DNA of 36,775 nt, from positions 1 through 36,775 of IMG/VR virus record IMGVR_UViG_3300044274_000303. One strand, given 5' to 3'. Made by a program: the position numbers and the translations under genes. Each line of letters starts with the position of its first letter. Within the stretch, counting starts at the first letter, position 1. Below the pieces are notes generated by a model. The model was not told the origin of the DNA. It saw nothing but the letters and a program-made list of their open reading frames with translations, and ran no database searches. Shown in pieces: positions 16,353 through 25,319 of this stretch. The stretch is from a virus. Its lineage: Duplodnaviria > Caudoviricetes.

Positions 16353-17501
16353 TTACTTGTCACCAAAATAGGCTGCTTCTAAAGCTTCAGCTTGTTCTGG
16401 GTTTTCTACTTTCATCTTTTCGTAAGCCTGTGGGTCTTTATCTATATAATCATCTAAAGTCCAGTCTTTACGTGATGCTTCTAAAGCATCATTACCATCT
16501 GCTGGCGTTAAGTTTTTACTTAACTTTGGTTTAGTAACCATTGCATCTAATGCAGTTTTAGCTGCATCATAATTTGCGGTTGCTAAATCCACATAGGTTT
16601 GCTTTTGATCTGCTGTAATTTTTTTAGCAGTAATCGCTTCATCAACCAAAGCATTTACTTTTTGTTCTGCTTCTGTTGTTTCAGTTTCTTCTTTAGCTGC
16701 AACAGTTTCACGTTGTTTTAAAGCATCTACTTTCATAGCTTTTTTTGCTGCTTCAATCTGTTCATCTGTAGCATTAGCTTCTAAGCCTAAAAAGGCAATT
16801 AGTTCTTCTTTGTCCATGATTTGTCTATTATTTATTTTTGATTTTGTTGCTTTTGGTAGAATAGGTGCGCCACAAGCTTCTAGTATAGTTACATCTTCTG
16901 CGCTAATTGTGCCTTCTTCATCAATAATAGCATCAATAAAGCCTTCTTCTTTAGCTTCTTCTGCACTCATCCAGTGATCGCCACCCTTCCATAGTTCTTC
17001 AATTTCAGCCTTGGTTTTACCTGTCTTTTTAGCATATTTTGCCAAATAATCTTTGGTAACACTTTTAAGTAGCTTTAATTCTTTAGTTATCTGGTCTTCA
17101 TTACCAAATGTGCCAAGCATTGGCTTATGGATCATTATTTGCGAATTGACATAAGCACTGGTGTGGTGACAAGCAGTAAAGTAAGTTGCTGCACTGGCAG
17201 CTGCTGCACCTACAGTAATATTGACTTTTTTAAATCGGTTTAGCTGGTTGTTAATTTCAACCGCTTCAAATACAGAACCGCCATTACTATTTATATACAC
17301 ATCTGCTTCTGTATGTGTTTTTAATAGTTCGTCTACCTTTTTCTGAAAATCACTAGAGTTATTGGCATTCCAATTTGCTATACGTCCTATAATGCGTATA
17401 TAAGCTTTACCATCCTTACTTTCAGCTGTAAGTTGTAATGGTTTTGCCTTGCCATCTGGCTTTGCAGAACCTATAATAATGATGTGTTTTTGTGACTTCA
17501 T
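16353..17501 (-). CDS. ClpP-type head maturation protease fused to scaffold domain
   Basis: INSNGGSV, AASAA (Ser), MIHKP (His), WMSAEEA.EEGFID; C-terminal half (MDKEELIAFLGL..ATDEQI..VDEAI..KIT) resembles a Mu gpI/Z scaffold. Confidence 0.9.
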   Translation of the reverse strand: MKSQKHIIIIGSAKPDGKAKPLQLTAESKDGKAYIRIIGRIANWNANNSSDFQKKVDELLKTHTEADVYINSNGGSVFEAVEINNQLNRFKKVNITVGAAAASAATYFTACHHTSAYVNSQIMIHKPMLGTFGNEDQITKELKLLKSVTKDYLAKYAKKTGKTKAEIEELWKGGDHWMSAEEAKEEGFIDAIIDEEGTISAEDVTILEACGAPILPKATKSKINNRQIMDKEELIAFLGLEANATDEQIEAAKKAMKVDALKQRETVAAKEETETTEAEQKVNALVDEAITAKKITADQKQTYVDLATANYDAAKTALDAMVTKPKLSKNLTPADGNDALEASRKDWTLDDYIDKDPQAYEKMKVENPEQAEALEAAYFGDK

Positions 17502-17672
17502 TTACGCTTAATTACAAGACAAATGTGCTGTAATATCACCGCCCAAAAAAATCACTAAATCAAAATGGTAGTTTTTTACACTTTTTTTGGTAGTACTCAG
17601 TAACCATTACACTTTATAGCTTTTTATAGCCATTAATATTGGTAGATATTTGACCTATAATTATAAGGTAGG
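17502..17672. promoter_or_regulatory. Divergent late-promoter region
   Basis: The only gap between the divergent structural operons; near-consensus -7 boxes CACATTTG (- strand, 17520-17527) and GATATTTG (+ strand, 17645-17652); short repeats TGGTAG x3 and TTACACTTT x2. Confidence 0.6.
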
Positions 17673-18212
17673 ATGGCAAAAGAAAAAGAAAAGCAGCTTG
17701 CACGAATTTACTATATAGAACAAGGTAAAACAGCTAAATGGATAGCTGCAAAATTAACCCTTACTGAAAAAACGGTTGGCGCTTGGATTGCAAAATATGG
17801 TTGGAAGGAATTAAGAAATGCCAAAGAAAATGGTATAGATAAACGTATTGATAATATCAAAGAAGTGATTGATGATATTATTGAAGACAGAAGCACCGCC
17901 AGAACTACCTTAAATAAATACAAGCTTGATTTAGCCAAAGCCCAAGAACAAAAGGACAAGGACACGGAAAAATCTATAAAAGAACAGATTAGTGAAATTA
18001 AACGTGAAATTGTTGGCTTTGATGATGCCATTAGCAAATGGAATAAAACACTAGAAAACTTTGATAAAGACAATAAAGTGTCGCTATCAAACTACATACA
18101 TGTTATGGAAGAAGTGTTTAAAGACCTTTTGGCTTTTGATCCAAAACTATATCAAGACACTTTAGATTTTCAAGACCAGCACATTAACAAAGTAAGCATT
18201 ACAATAGGATAA
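17673..18212 (+). CDS. Terminase small subunit-like HTH protein (DUF1804-like)
   Basis: N-terminal HTH (AKWIAAKLTLTEKTVGAWIAKYGW) plus coiled coil; upstream of the large terminase. Confidence 0.75.
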   Translation: MAKEKEKQLARIYYIEQGKTAKWIAAKLTLTEKTVGAWIAKYGWKELRNAKENGIDKRIDNIKEVIDDIIEDRSTARTTLNKYKLDLAKAQEQKDKDTEKSIKEQISEIKREIVGFDDAISKWNKTLENFDKDNKVSLSNYIHVMEEVFKDLLAFDPKLYQDTLDFQDQHINKVSITIG

Positions 18213-20000: not shown

Positions 20001-20416
20001 TTTATTTAACAGATGATGATTTATTAACCGATAGTTTCCAGCGTTTCATTGATGAAAGTACAAAGGATGATGAAGATGTTATTGGTAATGCAGAATTAAA
20101 ATGTATTGGTGTCATTAAAACGATGCTTAAAGGGCGTTATAACACCGATTTAATTTTTGATGAAGACCAGCCTGTACGTGATGAATTTCTAGCAGATATA
20201 TTAACCAAGTTAACATTGCATAAAATCTTTGGTCGTAATGCAGCACGTAAAGTACCAACAGATGTAAAAGATAATTATGATTGGGCAATGAAGCAATTGA
20301 CTATGCTAAATGCTGGAAAATTACAACTAGAATTACCAAGTCCAACAAATACCGATGGCACAACTTCAGTAGCGCCTATGTTTGGCAATAATACTAATCC
20401 AGATTTTTATATATAA
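19997..20416 (+). CDS. Head-tail adaptor, Mu gp36-like (DUF1320)
   Basis: YLTDDDL..L.GRY..Y.WAMK.L..LNAGKLQL pattern. Confidence 0.8.
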   Translation: MIYLTDDDLLTDSFQRFIDESTKDDEDVIGNAELKCIGVIKTMLKGRYNTDLIFDEDQPVRDEFLADILTKLTLHKIFGRNAARKVPTDVKDNYDWAMKQLTMLNAGKLQLELPSPTNTDGTTSVAPMFGNNTNPDFYI

Positions 20417-21690
20417 TGAGAATACCAAAATTTATACATAACGCAGTTGCAAAGTATGTTTTTAACAACACCGATGAAAAAACATTAAGAGTAGTAGCAG
20501 CAACAAAGTCTGGTAGCAACAAAGCGTTAAGTTATCAAACAGAAAAAGAAGCTATTAATATGCAAGCCAAAACGCTTGCAGATTGGAAATTAGCACTAAC
20601 ATTAGCCAGCGACCCAGAAGAACCTAATTTTAATGAATTAGAAAAGCTATACCAAAATTTGGAATTAGACAATCATTTAGTAGCTACTATAGAAAACCGA
20701 ATAGAACCAGTACAAGGCACGCCATTTAAGTTTACAGATCAATCTGGTAAAGAAAATGAAGAAGCCAAAGAACTGTTTGAAGCAATGTGGTTTATAGATT
20801 TTATTGGGGTGTGTCTGCGTTCAAAATTTCAAGGTTCTAAAGTGATTGAATTATATGACTTAGACGAAAACATGCATTTAGAGACTATCACAGAAGTACC
20901 TAAAGCACACGTAATACCATCAAAAGGGATAATTACAAAAGAAGCTGGTGGTACTACAGGATGGAACTATAAAGAAGGTGTTTTAAAAGATCAATACATC
21001 CAAATTGGTAAAGATGATTTTCTTGGGATGTATGCACAGCTTGCGCCAATCGTACTGGCTAAAAAATTAGGCTTTGGGTCTTGGTTAGACTACATAGAAA
21101 AGTATGGTGTACCACCAATTTTTGCAATAACAGACCGTGAAGACCAAGCACGTTTAGACCAGCTGTACAATGCACTGTTAAATTTCAAGTCCAACAACTT
21201 TATGGTGGGTCGTGGACAAGAAAAGTTTGAAATTGGCAAAGATACTGGTGGTGGTTCTTTTGATATTTTTGACAAACTCATTGAACGTGCTAATAGTGAA
21301 CTATCTAAACGTATTTTAGGTGGTACAGGTACAAGTGATGAAAAAAGCCATGTTGGCGCTGCCAAAGTACACGCAGCTATTTTAGCAACAAAGCATAAGT
21401 TAGATAAGTTTTTTGTAAAGGTTATCATCAATAACCAACTAATACCACGCCTTGTAAAATTAAGTCCTGTATATGCACCTTTAGCCAATCTAAAGTTTGA
21501 ATGGGATGATACCGAAAACTTGACATTAGACCAATACATAGCAGCGGTTAAAGATTTAAGTGCGTATTATGAAATAGATATTAAAGAATTAGCTACACGT
21601 ACAGGAATACCCATTACTGGCTTAAAAAAGGCTATGGACACACCAGAGGCAGATCCAGAACCAACGCCAGAACCTCAAAAAAAAAAGTAG
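20416..21690 (+). CDS. Portal protein, Mu gp29-like (DUF935)
   Basis: DNHL.A.IE.R, W..YIEKYGVP, NSELSK.ILG.T.TSD and VH motifs. Confidence 0.92.
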   Translation: MRIPKFIHNAVAKYVFNNTDEKTLRVVAATKSGSNKALSYQTEKEAINMQAKTLADWKLALTLASDPEEPNFNELEKLYQNLELDNHLVATIENRIEPVQGTPFKFTDQSGKENEEAKELFEAMWFIDFIGVCLRSKFQGSKVIELYDLDENMHLETITEVPKAHVIPSKGIITKEAGGTTGWNYKEGVLKDQYIQIGKDDFLGMYAQLAPIVLAKKLGFGSWLDYIEKYGVPPIFAITDREDQARLDQLYNALLNFKSNNFMVGRGQEKFEIGKDTGGGSFDIFDKLIERANSELSKRILGGTGTSDEKSHVGAAKVHAAILATKHKLDKFFVKVIINNQLIPRLVKLSPVYAPLANLKFEWDDTENLTLDQYIAAVKDLSAYYEIDIKELATRTGIPITGLKKAMDTPEADPEPTPEPQKKK

Positions 21691-22961
21691 TTACTGAAGC
21701 TGTTGCTAACATTGAAGCTTATTATGAAAAGCCTGTATGTTCACATGGGTCTGTAGAACCTTTAGCAGTAGATCTGAACTATTGGAATAAAACCATTATA
21801 CGTATTGCCAGACAATTACATAATGGTCAACTAAAACCAAGTGATTTAGACAAAGATTTATTGCAAAAAACCTTTAACCAGCTTAATAAAGCTGCTACTG
21901 AAGGTTATGGTGCGAATTACGATAGTTACAGCAAAAGCCACAATAAGACAGTACAACAGCTGCGACAAAATATTTACCAGTTTAGTGCTGCTAAAACCTT
22001 TCAACAGTTACAGCATTTCAATAGTCTTTTAGTAGATGAAAATGGTAAAGAACGTTCTTTTTCCAGCTTCAAAAATGCTGTATTAACTGTACACCCTAAA
22101 TACAATGTCAATTATTTACAAGCCGAATACCAGACCGCAAAAGCATCTGCACAAATGGCACGTAAATGGCAGACTTTTGAGCGTAACCGTGACCGCTTCC
22201 CATACTTAAAATATAAAACTGTAGGTGATGAACACGTACGTGACGATCACCAGAAACTACACAACTTTACAGCACATATTGATGATCCCATATGGAATAA
22301 GATTTACCCACCTAATGACTGGCGTTGTCGTTGCTATGTTGTGCAAACCAATCAAGCCAGTGATGAACCAGCACCAGATATAAGTTTTATAGATCCAGAA
22401 TTTAGTATAAATGTTGGTAAAACTGGTGTGATATTTTCACCAGAACACCCATACTTTGTATTTCCTAAAAAAGATAAAGACAGCTTTAAAAAAGCCTTTG
22501 AAAGTTTTAAGCTAATTGCACCTTATGGTAAGGCTAGATATACAGCTAAAAATGGGTCAAAAGTATTTGTAAATCCATTTGCAGATGTTAAGGATCTAAA
22601 GCACAATTTTGAAGTGGCAAAGGTAATTGCAGACACGGTTAAAAAATCAGTGAGTATAAGACCACATATAGATGGTCGTGTGCTTCCTAAATTAAAAAAC
22701 CCAGAATACTTAATTGATAAAAAGTTAGCAGATCTAAAAGCGCCTAAAGGATTGCTATTAAAAAACATATTCAAAAAGGCTAATAAGCAAAAGACAGCTG
22801 TAGTGGTGATTGATTTAATAGACAATCCAAACACATTTAAAACAATGAAGACTGCGGTTATAGAAAAGCTAAAGAATAACGATATATACCCTAATATTAA
22901 AGAAGTGATTTTAATATCAAAAGACCGTAAAACTGTAGAAGTGATTAAACGTAAAAAGTAG
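21687..22961 (+). CDS. MuF (Mu gp30-like) minor head protein with C-terminal CdiA-like PD-(D/E)xK nuclease; probably made as a -1 frameshift fusion to the portal
   Basis: MuF motifs YL.AEYQTA, Y.TVGDEHVR.DH, YPPNDWRCRC and F..NVG; C-terminal KNPEYLID..LADLK; frame open from the portal stop with no ATG/GTG/TTG before the TTG at 21861. Confidence 0.85.
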   Translation, partial: VVTEAVANIEAYYEKPVCSHGSVEPLAVDLNYWNKTIIRIARQLHNGQLKPSDLDKDLLQKTFNQLNKAATEGYGANYDSYSKSHNKTVQQLRQNIYQFSAAKTFQQLQHFNSLLVDENGKERSFSSFKNAVLTVHPKYNVNYLQAEYQTAKASAQMARKWQTFERNRDRFPYLKYKTVGDEHVRDDHQKLHNFTAHIDDPIWNKIYPPNDWRCRCYVVQTNQASDEPAPDISFIDPEFSINVGKTGVIFSPEHPYFVFPKKDKDSFKKAFESFKLIAPYGKARYTAKNGSKVFVNPFADVKDLKHNFEVAKVIADTVKKSVSIRPHIDGRVLPKLKNPEYLIDKKLADLKAPKGLLLKNIFKKANKQKTAVVVIDLIDNPNTFKTMKTAVIEKLKNNDIYPNIKEVILISKDRKTVEVIKRKK

Positions 22962-22965
22962 GCAC

Positions 22966-22994
22966 AAAAAAAGCAACTCGAAAGTTGCCTTTTT
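22966..22994. terminator. Bidirectional intrinsic terminator, stronger on the - strand
   Basis: GCAACT-[CGAA; UUCG on -]-AGTTGC stem with A7 on the left (U7 on -) and T5 on the right. Confidence 0.8.
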
Positions 22995-23034
22995 ATAAGT
23001 TACGTTCTTGCATTTTACGTCGCAAACTTCCTTA
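22966..23034 (-). ncRNA. Candidate ~65-70 nt small RNA convergent on the MuF-nuclease gene
   Basis: Perfect -7 box TATATTTG (23047-23040), TTG 21 bp upstream, a 33-nt self-complementary core, then a terminator with U7; no ATG-initiated ORF of note inside. Confidence 0.55.
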
Positions 23035-23039
23035 CAAGG

Positions 23040-23071
23040 CAAATATACAAAAAATGAGCAAAAAAAATCAA
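23040..23071 (-). promoter_or_regulatory. Bacteroidota sigma-A type promoter, antisense to the late operon
   Basis: TTG (23071-23069)-N21-TATATTTG (23047-23040). Confidence 0.6.
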
Positions 23072-23566
23072 TTTCCAGACTTTTTGGCAATGAGCCAACA
23101 GTTGCTAAAGGACTTACAAAGTGATGCCGAAATTATGGGTATTGACTTTATACACAGCAATTTTGAAAAGCAAGGTTTTACAGATAATGCTTTTGAAGCT
23201 TGGAAACCACGCAAAGAAAGTATTAGCTACAATCTATTACGTGTCACTAACAATTTATTTAATTCTGTCAATGTAGCCAATAGTACACAAGAACGTGTAA
23301 CATTTGAAGCAGATGCACCTTATGCTTCTATACATAATGAAGGTGGTATACTCAATGTGCCTATTACAGAACGATCACGTAAATATTTTTGGTTTATGTA
23401 TAAAGCTACTGGTAAAAGCATGTGGCGTGCTATGGCATTGACAAAAAAAGACCGATTGACTATTAAAATATATCAAAGGCAATTTATGGGGCATAGTAAC
23501 ACCTTTGCCCAGCAATGGAATGACCACGTAATACAAGAAATTTTAACACGATTTAAACAACTTTAA
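23054..23566 (+). CDS. Virion morphogenesis / neck protein (Mu gpG / P2 gpS-like)
   Basis: NF..QGF...W.PR, L..T..L..S, PYA.IHNEGG and RQFMG motifs; ATG at 23054 with A-rich leader preferred over TTG at 22985. Confidence 0.85.
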   Translation: MSKKNQFPDFLAMSQQLLKDLQSDAEIMGIDFIHSNFEKQGFTDNAFEAWKPRKESISYNLLRVTNNLFNSVNVANSTQERVTFEADAPYASIHNEGGILNVPITERSRKYFWFMYKATGKSMWRAMALTKKDRLTIKIYQRQFMGHSNTFAQQWNDHVIQEILTRFKQL

Positions 23567-24342: not shown

Positions 24343-24735
24343 TTACTGTGTGGCTTCTTCGTATTCTTTTTTAGATGCCAATAATTTATTTTTAGTATAT
24401 GGTTTCAAACTTTCAGCAGGATTGACTTTATTAGCTTCATTATAGTATTGCAGTCCTTTTTTATAACTACTTACATGTAATTCTTCATCTAAATTTATTA
24501 AGGAATTAGCAGCCCTAAAATACCTATCTGCGATTAGATACATTATAATACTTTTTACTTTATTGCATCTTTCAGTTGGTTCTTCTATACATTTAGGCTT
24601 AATGAGTTCTAAGCCTTTTTTTAAGTCTTTATTTCTGGTATGTGTATTTGCATACTGGTCAAATATTTCTTCAACAGTTTGTGCTTGTGAAAGGCTAAAA
24701 CTAAACAGAAGTGCTATAAATAGTAATCTTTTCAT
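24343..24735 (-). CDS. Secreted/periplasmic alpha-helical protein (accessory)
   Basis: Sec signal peptide MKRLLFIALLFSFSLSQA|Q, a Cys pair and TPR-like helices; ATGA overlap with the rhomboid gene. Confidence 0.75.
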   Translation of the reverse strand: MKRLLFIALLFSFSLSQAQTVEEIFDQYANTHTRNKDLKKGLELIKPKCIEEPTERCNKVKSIIMYLIADRYFRAANSLINLDEELHVSSYKKGLQYYNEANKVNPAESLKPYTKNKLLASKKEYEEATQ

Positions 24736-25319
24736 AATTGGTTATTTGTGTTAAAATTAATAAAGTCTTTTTTAATTATTCGCTTTTGAGCAAAAAATAA
24801 TACTCCAGCTATAGCACCACCAATGTGCGAGATATAACCACCACTATTATTTGTGAGTAGAACACCAGCAATATCTATGCCTAATATCAATACTGCAAAA
24901 TATTTTAGTTTAAATCTTGAAGCAAAAACTGCTATTGTTTTATTTGGTAATACAAGGCACGTAAACAGTGTTATTGCTCTTACAGCTGCGCTAGCACCAA
25001 TTAACGAATTGTTGTAATTGAAATAGGTGCTAAATATTAAAAATGCAATAGCACCAGTAGTTGCGCCAAGCAAATATAGTTTTAGTAGATGCTTATGTTG
25101 GTTAATGGACTTTAAAAGGTTTGCCATAAAAATTAATAGCGCCATATTTAGCAATAGATGAATAAAACTACTATGCAAAAAGCTATAACTTACAACTGAT
25201 AAAACACCATTTAAAGAGTAATTAAATGGTGCGTATAAACTGCTAACTTCTATTATTGAAGTGAATTTTGAAAGGGCAAAAACAATAACATTTAGTATAA
25301 TAATCTGGTATAGCTTCAT
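24732..25319 (-). CDS. Rhomboid family intramembrane serine protease
   Basis: HxxxxHxxxNM (HSSFIHLLLNM), GAS catalytic Ser (LIGASAA), catalytic His (SHIGGAIAG), about 6 TM segments. Confidence 0.92.
   Translation of the reverse strand: MKLYQIIILNVIVFALSKFTSIIEVSSLYAPFNYSLNGVLSVVSYSFLHSSFIHLLLNMALLIFMANLLKSINQHKHLLKLYLLGATTGAIAFLIFSTYFNYNNSLIGASAAVRAITLFTCLVLPNKTIAVFASRFKLKYFAVLILGIDIAGVLLTNNSGGYISHIGGAIAGVLFFAQKRIIKKDFINFNTNNQL

Follow-up and report, generated by a model that had tools for sequence, protein, structure and literature searches.

We analyzed a complete virus record of 36.8 kb (IMGVR_UViG_3300044274_000303; its whole length is called the window below) and, within it, a locus that runs from a Mu-type portal gene through a MuF gene with a nuclease-like C-terminal tip into a short gap carrying a predicted small RNA gene on the opposite strand. 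The genes of the window include a Mu-like transposase, an AAA ATPase, Gam, a repressor, the portal, MuF, and a neck protein. Relatives lie almost entirely in Bacteroidota genomes, the closest of them in Flavobacteriaceae; among cultured phages the nearest is Winogradskyella phage Peternella_1 of the family Winoviridae (PMC8776804). The window phage probably has a Bacteroidota host. For comparison, 172 loci, nearly all from Bacteroidota genomes, were fetched, nine were dropped because they ended too near the MuF stop, and the remainder together with the window formed 110 groups at 80% identity. The features of the locus are collected in Table 1.

Table 1. Features of the portal–MuF–RNA locus in the window, with strand and supporting match where available.
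Feature	Position	Strand	Support
Mu-type portal gene, 424 aa	20416..21690	+	PF06074, E 4.5e-58
A10G run containing A_AAA_AAG in phase (21681-21687), immediately 5′ of the portal stop TAG; site of predicted -1 recoding	21677..21690	+	
MuF coding sequence, -1 frame, 424 aa from the slip site	21687..22961	+	PF04233, E 2.7e-15, best stretch about 22104-22340
C-terminal PD-(D/E)xK nuclease domain like CdiA-CT 1026b (predicted); codons E 22704, D 22731, K 22737	22539..22958	+	
Hairpin 22973-22988 with U7 on minus (RNA terminator) and a 5-T tail on plus, possibly bidirectional	22966..22988		
Predicted small RNA, ~70 nt, start G23035	22966..23035	-	Comparative structure
P1 helix	23035-23031 with 22999-22995	-	
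P2 helix	23027-23024 with 23007-23004	-	
GC/AA internal loop and inner hairpin	23023-23008	-	
Bacteroidota-type promoter, -7 box TATATTTG at 23047-23040, candidate upstream TTG 23071-23069	23040..23071	-	
Neck/tail-completion gene, directly after the gap, in the place of an immunity gene	23054..23566	+	PF05069, phrog_26

A nuclease tip and a predicted RNA gene behind it

The last 140 aa of MuF match the CdiA_C family (PF18451, E 2.5e-6; score 28.0 bits, cut-off 26.6). An AlphaFold model of this tip (pLDDT 91.7) has a single Foldseek match at E≤0.001, to 4G6V_A (E 1.2e-7, TM 0.63), while a sequence-level search of the PDB gave no match at E≤10. The NPE...DLK motif (P-E..D-x-K) is intact, with the catalytic residues assigned from motif and conservation, without residue-level superposition on 4G6V. 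The matched structure, CdiA-CT of Burkholderia pseudomallei 1026b, cleaves the acceptor stem of tRNA-Ala, and its inhibitor is a protein (PMC9086364). We predict from the modeled fold that the window tip is likewise a tRNase.

The gap behind MuF (22962–23053, 92 bp) contains no ATG-started ORF of at least 45 aa. On the opposite strand there is a predicted promoter of the Bacteroidota type, for which the −7 consensus is TAnnTTTG (PMC7366714); this motif is depleted in the window (39 occurrences, 71 expected). A pyrimidine–purine step follows the box at positions 4–5 in 74 of 102 distinct units, and we therefore placed the start at G23035, about 70 nt from the U7 run. The terminator scanner reported the hairpin at 22973–22988 on the plus strand only. 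Taken alone, the window RNA shows no unusual folding stability (z −1.3 over 86 nt, −2.3 over its 58-nt 5′ part), so its structural support is comparative and comes from sixteen hand-picked look-alikes of its subclass. Common to all sixteen are P1, P2, a 2×2 internal loop (GC/AA in nine, UC/UU in six), and the inner hairpin. Nine of the 13 pairs change on both sides, none of 500 shuffles reached the score, slid controls collapsed, and RNAalifold, unaided, recovered 12 of the pairs. At paired positions, 28 G-U against 3 A-C combinations on the minus strand indicate that the structure is conserved on that strand. A covariance model of the window's subclass has one match in a 3.9-Mb genome, at the unit of its prophage, and also detects unseen members.

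No pseudoknot was found by a simple test confined to the terminal loop (complementarity of at least 5 bp to an unpaired segment in at most 1 of 16), and Rfam 15 holds no family for the window region (best 26.9 bits, from the terminator, against a threshold of 55). A small peptide encoded on the RNA strand was rejected, an ORF of at least 10 aa being present in only 6 of 102 units. Across RNA subclasses the MAFFT alignment was poor and was left unused. The frame of the neck gene is open across the entire RNA gap (window 22955–23566). We conclude that the opposite-strand promoter, folded RNA, and terminator form a predicted small RNA gene.

The original prediction had described the tip as a CdiA-like nuclease, which the family match, the structural match, and the intact motif confirm, and had described the gap as lacking an immunity ORF and holding a promoter–structure–terminator unit instead, which stands and has gained support from covariation. 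A search for protein immunity families elsewhere in the phage found none among 30 ORFs (Pfam), 14 (PADLOC), and 19 (PHROGs), unannotated ORFs not being excluded by these counts. A sub-threshold Imm43 match inside the MuF domain was taken as noise.

The predicted RNA unit follows the class of the tip. The 110 clusters comprise CdiA_C, PBECR2, LPD3, ART, Gln deamidase, metallopeptidase-like, and short tips, and a unit was scored when the promoter motif lay 25–140 nt behind the stop, which occurs by chance in 287 of 3902 random 115-nt windows (7%). Units were present behind 58/62 CdiA-like and 9/10 PBECR2/LPD3 tips, 0/19 short MuFs, 0/4 protein-targeting tips, and 7/15 unclassified tips (four of these seven CdiA-like in look, three weakly LPD3-like). 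The comparison that the original prediction had called for, nuclease-tipped against short MuF, thus stands at 67/72 against 0/19. Behind short MuFs the next gene is usually immediately adjoining. A small ORF follows the tip at one of 74 unit-bearing loci, compared with 7 of 12 long non-nuclease tips without a unit. Of 96 units, 69 have a terminator-like hairpin on the strand of the RNA (shuffles 16.7).

The unit is also lost together with catalysis. Among 66 CdiA-like tips, 61 have both the catalytic acid and the unit, none the acid only, one the unit only, and four neither (p 7e-6, uncorrected for kinship). The four tips with neither also lack the lysine, and they stand beside unit-bearing relatives at four places of a quick tree. 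Cultured phages span this range: TCUEAP3 carries the slip site, a CdiA-like tip, and the RNA unit; in L007, apparently Peternella_1, the tip is decayed and the unit absent; hankyphage jmh72_hp carries a deamidase tip with a convergent ORF of 89 aa (L660:2803-3072); in lotta8-1 a metallopeptidase-like tip is accompanied by a small ORF; and FPSV-S1 has a short MuF and neither. The 89-aa ORF of jmh72_hp, oriented as the RNA units are, is a candidate protein immunity gene behind a Gln-deamidase tip.

Thirty-five metagenome loci, partly redundant with the earlier set, yielded 28 motif-bearing tips with a unit, two that were cut off, one wrong ORF pick, and four without a promoter match; of these last four, one retains the RNA core behind a promoter variant, two are ORFs that end early, and one is a duplicate. 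Two PF18451 proteins without MuF in a 401-genome sample are followed by ORFs of 68–77 aa and no unit. The profile PF18451 alone gathers 465 clusters at 50% identity. Tandem RNA cores or whole units stand behind the tip in L302, L059/L276, and L650, one of them matching the unit of another locus, and resemble poly-immunity arrays.

To relate the RNA to the tip apart from their surroundings, we compared 88 CdiA-class loci, including 102 pairs (not independent of one another) with both flanks more than 80% identical. RNA similarity in these pairs was 0.96 where tip identity exceeded 80% (26 pairs), 0.20 at 50–80% (30 pairs), and 0.24 below 50% (46 pairs), with a background of 0.18, and the linear partial correlation with the RNA was 0.62 for the tip, 0.13 for the MuF N-terminal part, and −0.06 for the next gene. 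Two loci of a phage without MuF or portal, L241 and L270, share their flanks but differ in both tip and RNA, and the L270 RNA is nearly equal to that of the MuF-linked loci L039/L279. The predicted unit is exchanged along with the tip and accompanies the nuclease into a phage that lacks MuF. We regard the pairing of nuclease and putative small RNA as real and widespread, and no description of it was found in the literature searched.

In L241 (2378-2995) and L270 (2378-2962) the CdiA-like nuclease sits on a short MGKSSGG leader in a non-Mu phage, and a second MGKSSGG-leader protein with an HExxH motif adjoins it. A second PF18451-like protein without MuF (L619, G007:C15) lies in the same genome as L110 and is followed by a promoter-to-stop unit of about 140 nt.

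tRNA-like motifs by tip class

The RNAs behind different tip folds carry different motifs. A core of P2, loop, and hairpin is present in 50 of 77 CdiA-class RNAs (shuffles 6.6, maximum 15) and in 1 of 18 others. When P2 is taken as an acceptor stem, CCA begins at position 74 in 9 of the 50, every other offset being found at most three times. Outside the window's subclass, 27 of 62 CdiA-class RNAs have unpaired CC behind a helix end (shuffles 6.5), a feature of none of 18 LPD3/PBECR2 RNAs; k-mer tests placed CCA-like words at or near the shuffle level. Five RNAs match at least 9 bases of the host tRNA-Met 3′ end (shuffles 0.28). In the RNAs of L043, L029, L270, and L279 the stem ends in CCGC-U-ACCA and the RNA starts with (C/U)GCGG, an arrangement that resembles the acceptor end of initiator tRNA-Met in the host and may name the target of that subgroup of tips. 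A reverse search with the CdiA core (120 matches) returned mostly chance hits, with three distinct nuclease-linked contexts and one more at 274 nt.

Behind LPD3 tips the motif is instead an anticodon-like hairpin. GGAUUGCA-N-AUCC was found in 20 of 20 distinct regions drawn from 80 loci, and two more distant LPD3-linked regions have GGU/ACC like the host tRNA-Cys. Of 120 matches to the motif in the collection, 60 lie behind LPD3, two are tRNA genes (both tRNA-Cys), and 58 are other or too short to tell. LPD3 (PF18798), a domain without known function, occurs with this tRNA-Cys-like hairpin RNA in L294-L373, L157, L165, L145, L069, and L155, with position 37 varying. Its model has no Foldseek match at E≤0.001, and no profile match to PBECR2 was obtained. 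LPD3 may be an anticodon nuclease. Further RNA classes, with neither the GC/AA core nor the Cys-like loop, stand behind LPD3-like/PBECR2 tips in L147, L171, L148, L149, L168, and L070. Overall, tRNA mimicry is supported in the sister classes, and through the shared core it may extend to the window's RNA.

The portal–MuF junction

The 3′ end of the portal gene reads CAA AAA AAA AAG TAG, with A10 at 21677–21686, G at 21687, and the stop at 21688–21690 directly after the heptamer. The MuF −1 frame is open from 21585 to the stop ending at 22961; its first TTG (21861) and first ATG (22155) both lie behind conserved N-terminal residues. This agrees with the original prediction, in which the portal ended on a slippery site leading into a MuF frame without an ATG start. 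The predicted fusion of portal and MuF would be 848 aa long, and natural in-frame fusions of 846–878 aa exist in L103, L051, and L055. An assembly slip at A10 was rejected, because the run is without indel in contigs of runs X1, X3, and X9 (X1 and X3 possibly being the source of the window DNA) and the junction is conserved in relatives.

The junction could be measured in 92 of the 110 groups, the other 18 being fused, lacking a portal in view, or having a gap. MuF is in the −1 frame in 87, in +1 in two, and in frame 0 with an ATG start in three. An in-phase X_XXY_YYZ heptamer is present at 83 of the 87 −1 junctions, compared with 43 of 849 control windows in the portal (A_AAA_AAA 28, A_AAA_AAG 19, T_TTT_TTC 17, A_AAT_TTT 8, others 11). 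Exactly ten A's occur at 31 of 54 A-run junctions, and the presence of such runs in every codon phase hints at transcriptional as well as ribosomal slippage. No 3′ stimulatory structure was found in the window (z +1.3 for 90–111 nt behind the slip site), while T_TTT_TTC relatives have inverted repeats that look hairpin-like when judged by eye. We conclude that programmed −1 recoding very probably joins MuF to the portal, by a ribosomal or a transcriptional route.

The in-frame portal–MuF fusions that we inspected (L026, L051, L053, L055, L057, L074, L084, and L103) all keep A10/A11 or G_GGA_AAG at the junction (8/8). In seven of the eight the −1 frame stops within a few codons after the junction, so that a slip there would release free portal.

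The original prediction had treated the junction, the tip, and the RNA as one unit, and this was not supported. The slippery junction is present whatever the MuF tip, ahead of short MuFs as well as of other tips, and the nuclease–RNA pair occurs without MuF or portal in L241 and L270. As each occurs without the other, the recoding site and the nuclease–RNA pair are two separable modules.

Elsewhere in the window, the structural genes are arranged in two divergent blocks on either side of 17501–17673, terminase–portal–neck on the plus strand and protease–capsid–tail on the minus strand. A rhomboid intramembrane protease gene (24732–25319, minus strand; PF01694, E 1.5e-17) lies in the accessory region of the phage.

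A proposed RNA antidote, its rivals, and known systems

We think it somewhat likely that the ~70-nt RNA confers immunity as a substrate decoy, a tRNA-like molecule that would bind and block the nuclease tip in place of a protein immunity gene. A decoy inhibitor is the simplest account because the unit fills the immunity slot, is lost with catalysis, travels with the tip, and changes its motif with the tip fold. In this scheme, slippage on A10 / A_AAA_AAG would yield mostly free portal and a minority of the 848-aa fusion, rationing the nuclease per head. The promoter would be active in lysogens and during virion assembly, and the RNA would bind the nuclease through the P2–GC/AA–hairpin core as its handle. 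The tip would then be released and enter the next cell with the DNA, which is the weakest step: the portal stays in the head, so a portal-tethered tip would need to be released, for which the phage's Clp-like protease is a candidate. Requiring transcription only, the antidote could still be made while tRNA is being cut, and cells that destroy the incoming DNA would receive the toxin without it. Packaging and delivery of the tip rest on analogy, namely with SPP1 gp7, of which one or two copies per head are bound to the portal, and with MuF toxins, which have been proposed to enter with DNA (both PMC5576092).

We put forward a broader picture more tentatively, as possible rather than probable. 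Bacteroidota phages would carry a polymorphic toxin system with RNA immunity, in which at least two unrelated virion-borne tRNase folds are paired with swappable RNAs that mimic the attacked part of the tRNA (the tRNA-Cys anticodon arm for LPD3, the acceptor end for CdiA-like tips). The translation-free antidote would make the system a dead-man's switch that kills cells destroying phage DNA, and the RNA sequence would name the target.

Several observations weigh against tRNA mimicry, against a strict partnership of RNA and tip, or both. In the window's own subclass the acceptor-end signal appears in only 2 of 16 RNAs (shuffles 1.2), its covariance model does not detect acceptor-type RNAs or other subclasses, and exact tRNA matches of CdiA-class RNAs are no longer than in shuffles. 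For LPD3, a weight-matrix scan of the motif scores tRNA-Phe at 11.5 and tRNA-Cys at 11.7, and the model is only weakly like CDI, colicin D, and RelE-type RNases (Z 3.8–5.0). Raw rank correlations with the RNA do not favor the tip (tip 0.21, MuF N-terminal part 0.23, next gene 0.11), the flank-matched pairs lack independence, and the terminator straddles the nuclease stop codon in 43 of 69 cases, so adjacency alone can produce part of the co-exchange. The 19-nt core of the window is identical in L110 (tip identity 42%) and L625 (53%) and differs in L004 (77%). Finally, L026 has a unit though its catalytic acid is lost, and the motif lysine is absent at the aligned column in 14 unit-bearing tips.

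These points leave room for other explanations. The RNA could be a cis-antisense, type I-like antitoxin that pairs with the 3′ end or trailer of the portal–MuF message, triggers its decay, and silences leaky nuclease. The convergent layout, the full complementarity of the RNA to the late message in the gap, and the terminators that extend into the nuclease coding end are in line with this, and co-loss with dead tips fits any antitoxin. We nevertheless consider it unlikely, since antisense pairing needs no conserved motif whereas the motifs are fixed and differ by tip class, tandem units go unexplained, the overlap with coding sequence is short and in the window nil, and such an RNA could not protect against protein already in the virion. 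Transcription itself might matter, with a convergent promoter and a bidirectional terminator insulating the toxic gene or dampening read-through around it; the promoter is the most constant part of the unit, terminator-like hairpins exceed shuffles severalfold (69/96 against 16.7), and the inner sequences vary widely. Insulation, however, does not require covarying internal helices or an invariant GC/AA or UC/UU loop, and the unit is absent behind protein-targeting tips, which makes this account improbable. Both would explain position and co-loss and leave the class-specific motifs and tandem copies unexplained.

Alternatively, the RNA could bind the tip without inhibiting it and form an active ribonucleoprotein, in which it would serve as cofactor, guide, or packaging partner. 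The same co-occurrence, co-loss, and co-exchange would follow, and the lack of tRNA-end mimicry in the window's subclass would cause no difficulty. To this we likewise give little weight: the unit occupies the place of an immunity gene and almost never occurs together with a small ORF, the homolog 4G6V attacks tRNA as a protein and has a protein inhibitor (PMC9086364), no segment varied in the manner of a guide, and the layout is common to two unrelated folds. We regard as very improbable a reading in which the tip is an RNA-binding component of the head with weak catalysis and the RNA serves a different function, such as in the lysis–lysogeny choice. The 14 unit-bearing tips without the motif lysine and the decayed, unit-less tip of cultured L007 would fit; against it, unit and catalytic acid are lost in parallel (61/0/1/4), and E, D, and K are kept in the window tip.

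The decoy account, if true, would matter because immunity to polymorphic toxins has been described as protein-based and protein-binding RNA antitoxins are known from few families. A widespread set of RNA immunity genes would have been missed by annotation, MuF toxins without immunity ORFs would be explained, and the RNAs would predict what uncharacterized domains, LPD3 among them, act on and could serve as compact inhibitors of tRNases. A 140-aa domain and a 70-nt RNA make the role of MuF toxins testable, and cultured TCUEAP3 carries the whole set.

Each part of the locus has a known counterpart. In dnaX and phage tail assembly chaperones, an A_AAA_AAG-type heptamer gives two products in a ratio; here such a site joins the portal to MuF, and there is no downstream structure in the window. 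Bacillus RatA/TxpA has a convergent type I antitoxin RNA at the 3′ end of a toxin gene, the layout predicted here. By position the window RNA is complementary to the trailer and does not overlap coding sequence (a short overlap exists in 43 of 69 relatives); in contrast, the toxin here is a nuclease domain of a large virion protein and the RNA motifs are specific to the tip class. Neither the RNA unit nor the portal–MuF frameshift was described in the main-text passages of the literature searched; supplementary frameshift or RNA-motif tables could list these sites. Neither was found by term in the available parts of PMC11699363, PMC5512222, PMC5009743, PMC3711429, PMC7761591, PMC12135933, and two 2026 preprints, and the word portal is absent from the main texts of the frameshift papers PMC5009743 (first 300,000 characters) and PMC3711429.

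Closest in architecture are the MuF polymorphic toxins (Jamet et al. 2017, PMC5576092; Bxa/Apk2, PMC11699363), with the same MuF behind a temperate-phage portal, a variable C-terminal toxin tip, and a partner gene directly downstream; there the partner is a small immunity ORF, which the window lacks. CdiA-CT/CdiI of B. pseudomallei 1026b (4G6V) shares the PD-(D/E)xK fold and catalytic motif with the window tip but is contact-delivered and blocked by CdiI (PMC9086364), whereas the window tip is phage-borne and no CdiI-like gene was found adjoining. Phage polyvalent proteins contain PBECR and LPD domains (Iyer et al. 2017, PMC5512222), which are likewise predicted RNases fused to MuF and portal domains and thought to be injected with DNA; that account, in the parts available, gives no partner RNA or frameshift and leaves LPD3 without a function.

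The RNA would work like the antitoxin of a type III system. ToxIN, AbiQ, TenpIN, and CptIN, as well as AbiF/RCd22, which is prophage-encoded, likewise have a small structured RNA proposed to neutralize an RNase directly; the type III RNAs are repeats upstream of the toxin and co-transcribed with it, and ToxI forms pseudoknots cut by ToxN (both bioRxiv 10.1101/2025.04.15.648962). The type III likeness drawn in the original prediction therefore survives in the mode of action only, the comparison having found no pseudoknot, no upstream repeat array, and no co-transcription with the toxin. Nor does the tip belong to the ToxN-like or AbiF families by the searches made, Pfam and Foldseek leading to CdiA_C and PADLOC giving no match. 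The window unit is instead single, downstream, convergent, and under its own promoter, and its toxin has an unrelated fold and is part of a virion protein; in the units of relatives tRNA-like motifs are added. Judged by layout, by repeats and pseudoknots, and by toxin family, the pairing of nuclease tip and predicted small RNA is outside both the protein-immunity MuF toxins and the type III families.

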